From the IMG/VR virus record IMGVR_UViG_3300006750_000002, positions 1 through 64,000 of that record: 64,000 nucleotides of DNA; one strand, 5' to 3'. Position 1 is the stretch's first letter; every line of letters begins with the position of its first letter. Both the position numbers and the translations under genes were made by a program. Under the pieces are notes generated by a model, which was given only the letters and a program-made list of their open reading frames with translations, searched no databases and was not told the origin of the DNA. This document shows positions 1 to 1,025 of the stretch, piece by piece. This stretch comes from a virus.

Positions 1-86
1 CTGACTATTTGTGAATGCTGGAATAACTTAGTCTGACTTCCACTTAGTGTCAGATACTATCTTAATTTCAATACTTTCAAAGAACT
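1..86 (-). ncRNA. Putative structured ncRNA, 5' part only (runs off window)
   Basis: Lies directly behind a host-type promoter (93-124) and starts with boxA-like GTTCTTTGAAAGTATTG, as does the unit at ~720. Hairpin TCTGAC(32-37)/GTCAGA(49-54). No start codon context seen. Confidence 0.4.
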
Positions 87-92
87 ATGGTA

Positions 93-124
93 CAAATATA
101 CAAAAGATATTTTAAAGTACCAAA
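93..124 (-). promoter_or_regulatory. Bacteroidota sigma-A type promoter (TTTG-N20-TATATTTG) followed by boxA-like element at 76-85
   Basis: Minus strand TTTG gtactttaaaatatcttttg TATATTTG, then GTTCTTTGAA; near-identical copy at 710-758. Confidence 0.8.
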
Positions 125-140
125 CTACCAAATGTTTTTT

Positions 141-161
141 AAAAAAAAGATATCTTTTTTT
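141..161 (-). terminator. Possible intrinsic terminator / 3' end of the large ncRNA
   Basis: Palindrome AAAAAAAGATATCTTTTTTT; on the minus strand a weak hairpin followed by a U8 run, just upstream of the next promoter. Confidence 0.4.
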
Positions 162-720
162 ATCTCACCCATCTTATTTGTTCCAGGTTTAGCACCATCT
201 ATAGTAGCCCGTATCCCTTGTTACTATAAATGGTCAAGCTGCCAACTCCTCAGTGTATATTCCCTCTCAAATGGCATTTCAAGGGTTACACTGAATAAGG
301 TTATATGTGGCCAGACTTTCACTGGGTTGCTCTAGATTAATTATTTCTACACTTTCCCTTATCTTCTTTTAGTGATTGCTCACAAGGTCGTAGGTTTGAC
401 CTGTTTAAAAATAAATAACACTAACAAAGTTATCTGTTCGACTCAGTAACACCTAACATATACCTAGTATAGTGGTTAGTCTAGTGGGAGAGTTTATACT
501 CTACATACTCCAAGAGAACGCTTCTTTTTAAATAAATGATAAAACTACCAAGCCCCTTTCAGGCATATGGCATCCTTACGTGGTTAATGGAGAGCAGACT
601 GTCGTGCCACATTCATTACTCTTCCAACGGTTCTTTGGTAGTCTTATCAAATTTTTGTGGTTCTTCGGATGCTTTCTTCAAGCTCTTATTCAATCACAAA
701 ACCAATACTTTCAAAGAACG
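141..720 (-). ncRNA. Putative large (~570 nt) highly structured non-coding RNA
   Basis: Bounded by promoter+boxA and a U-tract. Minus-strand helices: ACCAUUUAUAGUA/UACUAUAGAUGGU (13 bp), CAGUGUA/UACACUG, GUGA-GCAA-UCAC, GCCU-GAAA-GGGGC, GACUACCAA/UUGGUAGUU, possible pseudoknot AUGUGGCA/UGCCAUAU. No credible ORF. Confidence 0.6.
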
Positions 721-726
721 ATAGTA

Positions 727-758
727 CAAATATACAAAAGATATTTTAAACCACCAAA
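727..758 (-). promoter_or_regulatory. Bacteroidota sigma-A type promoter (TTTG-N20-TATATTTG) followed by boxA-like element at 710-719
   Basis: Minus strand TTTG gtggtttaaaatatcttttg TATATTTG tactatc GTTCTTTGAA. Confidence 0.8.
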
Positions 759-916: not shown

Positions 917-1025
917 CCATCATAAATTCTTGAACCATATAGAGTCAACCGCCTCTTCATCCATCATAAATTCTTGAGCCATATAGTCCATAATTATTTC
1001 AATAGAGTCAACCGCCTCTTCATCC
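917..1025. repeat. Interleaved short direct repeats (tandem duplication with internal deletion)
   Basis: ccatcataaattcttga(a/g)ccatatag at ~917-942 and 961-986; atagagtcaaccgcctcttcatcc at ~939-962 and 1002-1025. Confidence 0.85.

Follow-up and report, generated by a model that had tools for sequence, protein, structure and literature searches.

A Non-Coding, boxA-Led Unit in a Marine T4-Like Phage Carries a Predicted Member of a Widespread Phage RNA Family

Introduction

The boxA element in the leaders and spacers of rRNA (rrn) operons serves NusB/S10-dependent antitermination and is used upstream of CRISPR arrays too. Phage T4 makes stable RNAs, species 1 (rnaC) and species 2 (rnaD). In T4-type phages, the PeSL (promoter-early plus stem-loop) cassettes were reportedly proposed by Arbiol et al. 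in 2010 to mediate modular shuffling in hyperplastic regions.

Here, we describe a locus in IMG/VR record IMGVR_UViG_3300006750_000002, of which positions 1 to 64,000 (64,000 nt; hereafter, the window) were analysed. The stretch 758–141 on the minus strand, to be called unit 1, is a transcription unit devoted to non-coding RNA; the phage is uncultured, marine and T4-like and uses Bacteroidetes-type promoters. Unit 1 resembles GOLLD (RF02032) and ROOL (RF03087) in being phage-borne, several hundred nt long and rich in helices.

Results

An Independently Promoted, ORF-Free Unit in a Variable Island

The features of unit 1 and the start of the next unit, all on the minus strand, are as follows.

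727..758 (−): Bacteroidetes-type promoter of unit 1 (−33 TTTG at 758–755, 20-nt spacer, −7 TATATTTG at 734–727)
704..719 (−): boxA-like leader GTTCTTTGAAA (719–709) plus GTATT, at most 3 nt from the expected transcription start
652..703 (−): D1, the segment after the leader; sequence kept with sister phage L239, predicted hairpins not supported
538..648 (−): D2, 5′ domain with a predicted pseudoknot (H1, 648–635/551–538; H2, 625–619/594–589; pseudoknot, 612–605/572–565)
405..537 (−): D3, a swappable linker; unrelated sequence takes its place in L239
187..404 (−): M3, a 215-nt 3′ domain, assigned by its sequence to a new family of phage RNAs
141..186 (−): 3′ tail (U8 and a weak A-U hairpin), a module also present in unit 2; the next promoter follows
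1..132 (−): unit 2 (−33 at 124–121, −7 at 100–93, boxA at 85–75) and the start of its ORF-free RNA

The TTTG-N20 promoter that an earlier, sequence-only reading of this DNA had claimed is read directly in the sequence, and unit 1 is independently promoted. Seven nucleotides lie between the −7 element and the leader; promoter and leader together are repeated at 124–69 (−) and kept in the sister phage L239, and related promoters are present in the relatives G002–G011.

The minus strand carries about 560 nt without a credible ORF in any genetic code tried, in line with the ORF-free stretch of that reading: the longest same-strand ORF in unit 1 counts 32 aa (table 11), and a recoded gene (TAG = Q, TGA = W, TAA = Q) yields no coherent frame. 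A tblastx search of the stretch against all loci collected here revealed no protein similarity, and we rejected a pseudogene remnant. Together, units 1, 2 and 3 span 1,254 nt without an ORF, one of the largest blocks of this kind in the genome, 92% of which is coding. Unit 1 is 100% identical in the seven contigs (out of seven) that span it, drawn from different samples; variation among samples was seen solely in unit 2, the RNA of which (about 200 nt, ORF-free) runs past the contig end and continues in L003 and L131. The island with unit 1 is missing from close relatives, and unit 2 is missing from L239.

The 109-aa gene upstream of unit 1 has undergone a recent internal duplication. Relatives of its product (81% and 64% identical) have small genes in place of the RNA. 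Homologs of unit 1 were found neither in INPHARED phages by blastn nor in ten related viral records; a first pattern search of the genome contigs yielded none, and neither did searches with patterns built on the D2 block, on the tail module or on the leader together with the RNA start. Local alignments of unit 1 with units 2 and 3, the tmRNA and the RNAs of G011 are not significant, and we rejected paralogy with them; the alignment with GOLLD (z of 3.5) is an A/T-rich artefact. A DGR template or antisense regulator was likewise dismissed: the longest exact match in the genome is 16 nt, as expected by chance, with no repeat or extended complementarity elsewhere.

At the 3′ end, the hairpin and U8 of the sequence-only reading are present, but they make a weak terminator: the stem consists of A-U pairs only (−3.4 kcal/mol, z of −0.13) and the terminator scan did not call it. 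The first strong terminator comes after the third unit, past the contig end. The tail of unit 1 and the promoter after it form a 49-nt junction, which recurs behind unit 2 at 92% identity and is kept in L239.

The Leader Matches the rrn-Type boxA in Sequence and Position

The leader did prove to be of the proposed boxA type: both here and in the relatives of this phage the motif is specific for units of stable RNA, and its sequence agrees with the boxA of rrn operons in the host family. A relaxed form, GTTC[AT]TTGA.A, occurs three times in the 190-kb record, once within a coding region and twice after promoters, where both copies head ORF-free units. A third promoter-linked copy, on an adjoining contig, heads the tmRNA; in this phage the promoter-linked leader stands before the tmRNA and two ORF-free units only, while the promoter of the neighbouring CAP gene is without the motif. 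The tmRNAs of the relatives are headed by the same leader. Among 80 IMG/VR loci with promoter plus leader, we read about 28 as leading into the 5′ end of a tmRNA and about five into a tRNA, and Rfam bore out the cases sampled. The GOLLD RNA in viral contig L050 also has GTTCTTTGAAG upstream.

In the rrn operons of Flavobacteriaceae, GTTCATTGACA, GTTCATTGAGA or GTTCTTTGACA is found both ahead of 16S and in the 16S–23S spacer. Of 23 rrn loci from this family, about 20 have the motif GTTC[A/T]TTGA[A/C/G/T]A in the spacer, and about half have it in the 300 nt ahead of 16S. Compared with GTTCATTGACA, the version most common in Flavobacteriaceae, the phage leader GTTCTTTGAAA is changed at two positions; exact copies of the leader occur in a Bacteroidetes MAG (L192), 124 nt ahead of 23S, and in L158, 112 nt ahead of 16S. 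The leader has the marks of an rrn-type boxA, namely, a match to rrn sequences of the host lineage and a position near the 5′ end of untranslated transcripts, not in mRNA leaders.

Known RNA Classes and Folding Energy

The suggestion of a ROOL or GOLLD relative did not survive comparison with Rfam, no family of which matches the 596-nt stretch even at E ≤ 10. The GOLLD model is unmatched at E ≤ 1 on 3 kb and at E ≤ 10 on the 596-nt stretch; the positive control, the true GOLLD in L050, scores 308 bits. ROOL fails as well, with no Rfam family at E ≤ 1 on the window stretch. For tmRNA (RF00023), neither the covariance model nor ARAGORN gives a match in record G000, the true tmRNA of the phage being located on the adjoining contig (G001:16260–16668, 109.5 bits); ARAGORN detects no tRNA-like ends in M3. 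The group I intron model (RF00028) has no match in the window or in the loci of M3 family members, the window is without a host gene for an intron, and the sequence downstream of the M3 element of L243 is full of stop codons. Twister-P1 (RF03160) is without a match at E ≤ 10 anywhere in G000.

Folding energy, a check proposed with the original claim, gives whole unit 1 a z of about −2.0, but this lies within the genomic background, since it is matched by 3 of 22 stretches of 554 nt drawn at random from this genome. Bona fide GOLLD scores −2.0 and the phage tmRNA −2.8. Because random windows fold as well and true GOLLD and tmRNA score similarly, folding energy does not decide the matter. The other proposed check, collection of homologs and covariation, was more telling: homologs were found, covariation is present among them, and the stretch is therefore real as RNA.

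A Predicted Pseudoknotted 5′ Domain and a Probable Mosaic Build

Sister phage L239 retains the 5′ domain at 87–90% identity; beyond the phage under study, D2 was found nowhere except there. Its local folding z is −2.9. The long-range helix GACUACCAA/UUGGUAGUU exists as first described and extends to 14 bp (648–635 with 551–538), and so does the pseudoknot AUGUGGCA/UGCCAUAU (612–605 with 572–565; 8 bp including one G-U). These two and the GGAAGAG/CUCUCC stem show compensatory or pair-preserving changes in L239: one compensatory pair in H2 (G-C to U-A), two in the pseudoknot (U-A to C-G and G-C to A-U) and two G-U to A-U changes. When the partners are slid by 1–3 columns, 0–1 such pairs remain; in a shuffle control, weak with two sequences only, 70 of 500 shuffles do as well. 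On this comparative sequence evidence, the 5′ domain is pseudoknotted and kept by compensatory changes in the sister phage. Two other predicted elements, a 5′ helix sequestering boxA and a hairpin in D1, are both broken in L239, where substitutions disrupt the D1 GCUU/AAGC hairpin and the GUUCUUUG/CGAAGAAC helix (alignment A1).

The linker D3 is 92% identical to a segment of metagenome contig L242 that lies between a protein gene and an M3 element. The single ornate fold of about 570 nt once envisaged is unlikely, as the three parts of the RNA occur independently of one another in other phages; the RNA of unit 1 is a mosaic of D2, linker D3 and M3. One large GOLLD/ROOL-type ornate RNA of the whole 560 nt or so, possibly a self-assembling multimer, would suit the size class, the phage-borne and boxA-led setting shared with the L050 GOLLD, the whole-length z equal to that of true GOLLD and the order of D1–D2, linker and M3 kept in the sister phage. 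We nevertheless hold it to be very unlikely in view of the missing Rfam match, the modules that stand separate elsewhere, the linker swapped wholesale in L239, the 115-nt and 46-nt insertions in the 3′ part of that phage, and long-range pairing between the 5′ and 3′ halves that is neither predicted nor conserved.

M3 Belongs to a New Family of Structured RNAs

The landmarks of M3 in the window are as follows.

401–398/389–386 (−): helix Pa
383–380/375–372 (−): helix Pb, with GCAA loop
363–357/300–294 (−): helix Pc
293–287/257–251 (−): helix Pd
285–281/266–262 (−): helix Pe
250–238 (−): strand S3, AGGAGUUGGCAGC, invariant
234–222/206–194 (−): helix Pg, the 13-bp hairpin of the sequence-only reading
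193–189 (−): 3′ GCUAA

Judged by sequence and pairing, M3 belongs to a widespread phage RNA family, of which viral contigs from marine and other sources contain at least 15 members. It is defined by ordered blocks (the Pa hairpin; Pb; CUAAAAGAAGAUAAGG; CAUAUAACCUUAUCCAGUGUACCCUUGAAAUGCCAUUUGAGAGGG; ACACUGAGGAGUUGGCAGC; ACCAU...AUGGUGCUAA) and comprises six core helices (Pa, Pb, Pc, Pd, Pe and Pg), an optional seventh (Pf), joining strands that do not vary, and six fixed positions occupied by variable segments or arms. The window copy has all blocks, and all pairs of its six core helices are canonical; its Pb is minimal (GCAA tetraloop), the Pf arm is absent and Pg is extended. Minimal copies of M3 are this one (404–187) and L251:11497–11690. 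With 11 complete members as nhmmer queries, the sole match in the genome is window 403–224 (E from 2e-33 to 0.003; 7e-7 or better for 10 of the 11).

MAFFT alignments ran to more than 400 columns or misaligned the Pc strand, and we therefore tallied covariation with scripts and RNAalifold. Pc keeps seven of seven pairs in all 15 members across six sequence versions, with covariation at three positions and no broken pair; Pa, Pe and Pg have compensatory or pair-preserving variants among the members. RNAalifold alone recovers Pc, Pe, part of Pd and Pg. The core is 80–97% conserved across unrelated phages, the Pf and Pg arms fold with a median z of −3.0, and the variable segments V1 and V2 are without clear structure.

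Several helices of the initial description are real as written: the 13-bp hairpin (234–222 with 206–194), although its loop and upper part are lineage-specific, CAGUGUA/UACACUG enclosing CCCU/AGGG, and GUGA-GCAA-UCAC. The CCAGU-GAAA-GUCUGG stem is present but measures 4 bp only, and the CCAGUGAAAGUCUGG hairpin falls within a variable segment. The idea of a new class applies to the 3′ domain: M3 is without a match in Rfam 15, and the family is listed neither there nor in the searchable literature. In six member loci, Rfam matched nothing inside any M3 element at E ≤ 1. The single match in member loci is FopS in L252, about 2.6 kb from the element. Five member records are without Gp23, one of them 100% complete, and we have rejected a confinement of M3 to T4-like phages.

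The conservation weighs against decay. That the stretch is a non-functional remnant, decayed genes of a hyperplastic region behind duplicated promoters, could be read from the variable accessory island missing from close relatives, the unremarkable folding z and the duplication within the upstream 109-aa gene. Covariation in the 5′ domain and in M3 already largely refutes this, and the M3 core conserved across unrelated phages, the lack of any trace of protein similarity and the full identity of the unit in seven contigs from different samples also speak against it; we consider such a remnant extremely improbable.

In the members other than the window and L239, M3 follows directly after small co-oriented ORFs, which fits a cis-acting mRNA element equally with a trans-acting RNA. 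M3 may be a cis-acting element of phage mRNAs, for instance a 3′-end stabiliser, an exonuclease block or an intergenic processing site, with unit 1 a derived case in which M3-type elements came to lie behind a duplicated stable-RNA promoter and have no trans function. At least 12 members sit 0–30 nt after such an ORF, the overlap in L243 amounting to the last 12 codons; these members have no boxA or host-type promoter of their own (no boxA or Bacteroidetes-type promoter occurs within 700 nt upstream of any member besides the window and L239), and L251 has tandem copies. Yet six helices and about 100 near-invariant unpaired nucleotides far exceed the needs of known stabilisers and terminators, the transcript contains no upstream gene in the window and L239, and the genes upstream and downstream of the members are mutually unrelated (no common family; Pfam finds one DUF6717 only). 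We regard the cis-acting element as rather unlikely.

Mobility could also account for the distribution. M3, perhaps with D3, might be a selfish mobile element (an intron-like or homing-type RNA/DNA or a recombination cassette) the conservation of which reflects its movement: the same core occurs in unrelated flanks and in differing phage types, including the five records without Gp23; what distinguishes L242 from L243 is an insertion of some 330 nt, on the flanks of which the first 13 nt or so of the element stand as a direct repeat; partial and tandem copies exist (L249, L251); and the island is missing from close relatives. Against this, group I, group II and ribozyme models are unmatched, there is no exon continuity across the element, and the arms hold no endonuclease or transposase ORF. 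Arms that have fully diverged around a fixed core point to long-term purifying selection on the RNA fold, and a selfish element seems distinctly improbable to us.

RNA families of this kind have repeatedly proved to be ribozymes, riboswitches or RNA–protein machines. A ribozyme-like core would fit the roughly 100 unpaired, extremely conserved nucleotides with variable segments and arms at fixed positions, and the Pe loop UGCCA may form a pseudoknot with the invariant strand UGGCA. That M3 constitutes a new catalytic or self-assembling RNA class, either a ribozyme processing the boxA-led transcripts or a ROOL/GOLLD-like cage or scaffold, distributed over unrelated marine phages and, in T4-like Bacteroidetes phages, expressed from a hijacked rRNA-type unit, is a speculative and unlikely extension of these features.

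Discussion

The explanation that we favour, with a probability of about 0.65, is a boxA-led non-coding unit composed of modules, with M3 acting in trans and with a transcript, ends and abundance as predicted here. Host RNA polymerase would transcribe the unit early, and the leader would recruit the NusB/S10 antitermination machinery, letting the untranslated transcript escape Rho. Past the weak U-tracts, transcription could continue into the cassettes that follow, as far as the strong terminator behind unit 3, and the transcript, or modules cut from it, would accumulate as stable RNA. The M3 core would work in trans through its fold, most likely by binding proteins as a scaffold or decoy, and not as a regulator of neighbouring genes. 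Action in trans rather than in cis is suggested because the copies in the window and L239 lie in a stable-RNA-type unit with no gene to regulate, and because the neighbours of other members share no family.

T4-like phages with Bacteroidetes-type promoters have copied a putative rRNA-type antitermination signal before tmRNA, tRNAs, GOLLD and several unknown RNAs, so that the signal offers a simple sequence handle for finding more non-coding RNA genes in phages. With M3, the known structured RNAs gain a well-supported family that has several helices in its conserved core and is present in many uncultured phages, not all of the same type. Units of exchangeable modules in a hypervariable island bear on the evolution of phage RNAs and on their annotation.

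The phage leader compares with the rrn boxA as an 11-nt motif of the GYUCUUUGA type in a promoter-proximal position of untranslated transcripts; unlike it, the leader opens the phage RNA genes at their extreme 5′ end and is not preceded by a boxB hairpin. GOLLD in L050 is likewise preceded by such a motif (GTTCTTTGAAG) and adjoins a boxA-led tmRNA. Towards GOLLD and ROOL in general, unit 1 has no similarity in sequence or by covariance model, and, in contrast to them, it consists of separable modules, its conserved domain measuring about 215 nt at its smallest. The stable RNAs of T4 and phage tmRNA are, like the predicted unit 1 RNA, stable untranslated RNAs of T4-like phages, and the tmRNA of this phage and its relatives has the same arrangement of promoter plus leader; M3 differs in being without tRNA-like ends, outside tRNA clusters and without similarity to tmRNA. 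The likeness to the PeSL cassettes lies in the repeated junction of tail, U-tract, early host-type promoter and leader between cassettes, with copies 92–93% identical, in the island missing from close relatives and in the presence or absence of unit 2 between sister phages. In place of small protein genes, however, the cassettes described here carry boxA-led non-coding RNAs, and their stem-loop is weak.

Genomic setting of the RNA units

The IMG/VR record that begins with the window measures 190,908 bp. Its end shares 123 bp, at 100% identity, with a second record, and the ENA contig L131 (236,623 bp) covers the junction between both, the assembly break being located at a repeated promoter. 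In L131, a 521-aa gene is followed by small genes (150, 65, 109 and 33 aa), an ORF-free block of 1,254 nt, the CAP-domain gene and the convergent Gp23 major capsid gene; given the latter, the phage is T4-like. It uses Bacteroidetes-type promoters (TTTG-N19-21-TAnnTTTG). In five closer relatives (521-aa protein 74–90% identical), the CAP gene follows the 521-aa gene directly, without intervening content; the stretch from window position 2149 to position 1, together with two more RNA units, is thus an accessory island.

At its 3′ end (920–1010, minus strand), the 109-aa gene is imperfectly duplicated in tandem, with GATGAAGAGGCGGTTGACTCTAT and then ..CAAGAATTTATGATGGA each occurring twice; this looks like a recent slippage event, since homologs in other contigs have 97 aa. 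Other large ORF-free gaps lie beyond the window (G000:187768-189215, 177172-177866 and 186378-186956, G000 being the whole record); the boxA motif occurs in none of them.

RNA units and tmRNA of the phage
758–755 and 734–727, minus: −33 and −7 boxes of the unit 1 promoter, read from the sequence
719–709, minus: unit 1 leader GTTCTTTGAAA, read from the sequence
703–652, minus: D1
648–538, minus: D2, the pseudoknotted 5′ domain
537–405, minus: D3, the linker
404–187, minus: M3, the 3′ domain
1–132, continued at L131:6126-6375, minus: unit 2, with promoter, boxA leader and the same tail module as unit 1
L131:6376-6700: unit 3, with a weaker promoter TTTG...TACCTTTA, leader GTGTTGAGAG and an ORF-free body of ~250 nt
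G001:16260-16668 (adjoining contig), minus: tmRNA (109.5 bits), with promoter and GTTCTTTGAAATTAT leader

Unit 1 is a promoter-driven, boxA-led, untranslated unit. The promoter, leader, ORF-free stretch and helices listed in the sequence-only reading are all present in the window; same-strand ORFs of unit 1 do not exceed 32 aa, also when stop codons are reassigned. The unit is 100% identical in the seven contigs, from different samples, that span it. The hairpin/U8 at its 3′ end is weak (−3.4 kcal/mol, z −0.13) and is not called by a terminator scan; the first strong terminator, the only one in the ORF-free block (−22 kcal/mol, z −5.6), is that in which unit 3 ends. Whole-length folding energy (z about −2.0) proves nothing either way, because it is equalled in 3 of 22 windows drawn at random from the same genome and is no worse than that of a true GOLLD RNA (z −2.0) or the phage's own tmRNA (z −2.8).

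Between-sample variation is confined to unit 2, where a hairpin is replaced in contig L139; its ~200-nt body differs from that of unit 1 and gives no structure signal (z 0.08). Another phage has a leader, GTTCATTGAGAGAG, similar to that of unit 3.

The leader resembles boxA of rrn operons

The relaxed leader motif, GTTC[AT]TTGA.A, has three matches in the 190-kb record, two directly after promoters (758–703 and 124–69) and one alone in a coding region. This phage has one more promoter-linked copy, at the head of its tmRNA. In three relatives (G003, G004, G006), which carry the same promoter, leader and tmRNA, genes for tRNA-Leu and tRNA-Arg come first (with an overlapping tRNA-Ile among the ARAGORN calls), and the leader ends 4–5 nt before the mature tmRNA 5′ end.

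Scanning IMG/VR for the −7 box followed by the leader gave 80 loci. By our reading, a tmRNA 5′ end follows the leader in ~28, a tRNA in ~5 and ORF-free sequence of unassigned kind in ~15; ARAGORN calls only three tmRNAs and two tRNAs among the loci. In sampled loci, Rfam confirmed tmRNAs and dense tRNA arrays, plus one GOLLD (308 bits), which in a 149-kb viral contig (L050:5916-6890) is convergent with a boxA-led tmRNA; a promoter, a small hairpin and GTTCTTTGAAG lie ~470 nt upstream of its Rfam-matched part.

In rrn operons, boxA sits upstream of 16S and in front of 23S. Among 23 distinct rrn loci from sampled Flavobacteriaceae genomes (L209–L238), a near-identical 11-mer (GTTCATTGACA, GTTCATTGAGA, GTTCATTGATA, GTTCTTTGACA) occurs in the 16S–23S spacer of about 20, and within 300 nt upstream of 16S in about half. 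GTTCATTGACA is nearly invariant in the spacer, with variants upstream of 16S, and the set offers a usable boxA consensus for this family. Two MAGs contain exact GTTCTTTGAAA, one from Bacteroidetes at 124 nt ahead of 23S and one from Verrucomicrobia at 112 nt ahead of 16S. Since these 11-mers occupy the boxA positions, comparison supports the earlier proposal that the leader is a boxA-type signal.

Other boxA-led ORF-free RNAs were seen. A distant relative (L045:4222-4640, identical to L048 and L037:1545-1960; variant L049) has two in tandem (~190 and ~420 nt); the longer one folds exceptionally well (z −7.45), seems to have compensatory changes when L045 is compared with L049, lacks an Rfam match and is unrelated in sequence to unit 1. 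At least two more kinds, likewise without an Rfam match, start ..GGTGGGGTGGCAGACGAAAG (~375 nt, up to a tRNA gene; L051:1352-1728, L059, L105, L124, L127) and ..AGGCACCTGAAG (behind a tRNA array; L067:6929 downwards, L069).

The 5′ domain in a sister phage

Many other homolog searches came back empty; with the CAP protein as query, we found a 95%-identical protein on the 265-kb contig L239, which carries a diverged unit 1, lacks unit 2 and conserves unit 3 at 96%. The unit 1 alignment is a mosaic: promoter, leader, D1–D2, a 53-nt block, the CAGUGU hairpin, the 13-bp hairpin stem and the tail are kept, whereas the linker (537–405) is wholly replaced, as is the CCAGUGAAAGUCUGG region, and an insertion of 115 nt precedes the 13-bp hairpin, whose loop grows from 15 to 61 nt.

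D2 differs by three compensatory pairs, all in helices predicted beforehand from the single sequence: G-C to U-A in GGAAGAG/CUCUCC, and U-A to C-G and G-C to A-U in the pseudoknot AUGUGGCA/UGCCAUAU. Two G-U to A-U changes accompany them; sliding the partners by 1–3 columns yields 0–1 compensatory pairs. The covariation expected among homologs is seen in this stem and pseudoknot. L239 does not preserve the two innermost pairs of the long-range helix, a D1 hairpin or the boxA-sequestering helix. The pattern shows a 5′ domain evidently kept by pair-preserving evolution.

M3 belongs to an RNA family

A first pattern, the 53-nt block with its hairpin left free, retrieved four marine metagenome contigs, and two further core patterns added 14 member loci from IMG/VR (three with the same sequence) and three chance matches. 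What those contigs share is only the 3′ part of unit 1, M3 (404–187); D3 recurs in L242 only and D1–D2 in L239 only. Parsing the members block by block established a fixed order.

Blocks of M3, 5′ to 3′
1: Pa hairpin, GGUC-loop-GACC
2: Pb arm, GUGA...UCAC, enclosing 4 nt (GCAA/GUAA) in minimal copies and up to ~120 nt elsewhere
3: strand CUAAAAGAA
4: Pc, GAUAAGG/CCUUAUC, around GAAAGUG, variable segment V1 and CAUAUAA
5: Pd, CAGUGU/ACACUG
6: Pe, CCCUU/GAGGG, with loop GAAA-(optional arm)-UGCCAUUUGA
7: variable segment V2
8: invariant strand AGGAGUUGGCAGC
9: optional Pf arm, AGAGAUAA...UUAUCUCG
10: Pg, ACCAU...AUGGU
11: GCUAA

With nhmmer, each complete member as query matches window 403–224 and nowhere else in the genome (E 2e-33 to 0.003). 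Pc keeps 7/7 canonical pairs in 15/15 members, in six sequence versions, with double changes at three positions (A-U to G-C; G-C to A-U; G-C to C-G or U-A, also U-G). Pa varies from GGUC/GACC to GGUU/AACC and Pe from U-A to C-G, and L258 has a wholly different 9-bp Pg. Pc with its compensatory changes, Pe, Pg and some of Pd also emerge independently when RNAalifold is applied to a rough MAFFT alignment. Structure is strong in the Pf/Pg arms (median z −3.0); the folding z of V1 and V2 indicates no strong structure. Rfam 15 gave no match for six member loci, and the core motifs were not found in the searchable literature. By these comparisons, the 3′ domain, too, is shown as kept by pair-preserving evolution, and M3 as a member of a widespread, uncatalogued family of predicted RNAs. 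The family is not limited to T4-like phages, as Gp23 is absent from five member records, one of them 100% complete (98.5 kb).

In L246, L251, L254 and L255, a second conserved block lies 20–120 nt downstream of M3 (CTTGACA, ~23 nt, TAAAAT, then ..CGGGCATGTTGCTGG..GATGGGATAGACCCTCATC); a promoter with another conserved RNA or gene start is one possibility.

Possible roles and comparison with known RNAs

Members lie after small co-oriented ORFs; in L243, a 117-aa gene and the element overlap by 12 codons at the gene's end. Within 700 nt upstream, only the window and L239 have a boxA or Bacteroidetes-type promoter, and Pfam revealed no common family among neighbouring proteins. L251 carries two tandem copies and L249 one partial extra copy. 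Relative to L243, L242 has an insertion of ~330 nt (D3 plus other sequence), and the first ~13 nt of the element are repeated on the insertion's flanks, a hint that recombination or mobility occurs at such elements; a selfish mobile element is a serious rival account of M3. So is a cis element for mRNA stability or processing, because most other members look like parts of mRNAs.

We prefer a trans-acting M3, because this phage puts it behind the same cassette that heads its tmRNA, where there is no gene to regulate. Host RNA polymerase would transcribe unit 1 early, Nus factors would, via the leader, protect the transcript from Rho, possibly with read-through of weak U-tracts across units 1–3, and the transcript would accumulate as a stable RNA; M3 would act in trans. 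The sequence-only reading had likened unit 1 to GOLLD and ROOL, the large phage-associated RNAs; a single ornate RNA of that kind is disfavoured, because the modules of unit 1 are distributed independently of each other in other contigs.
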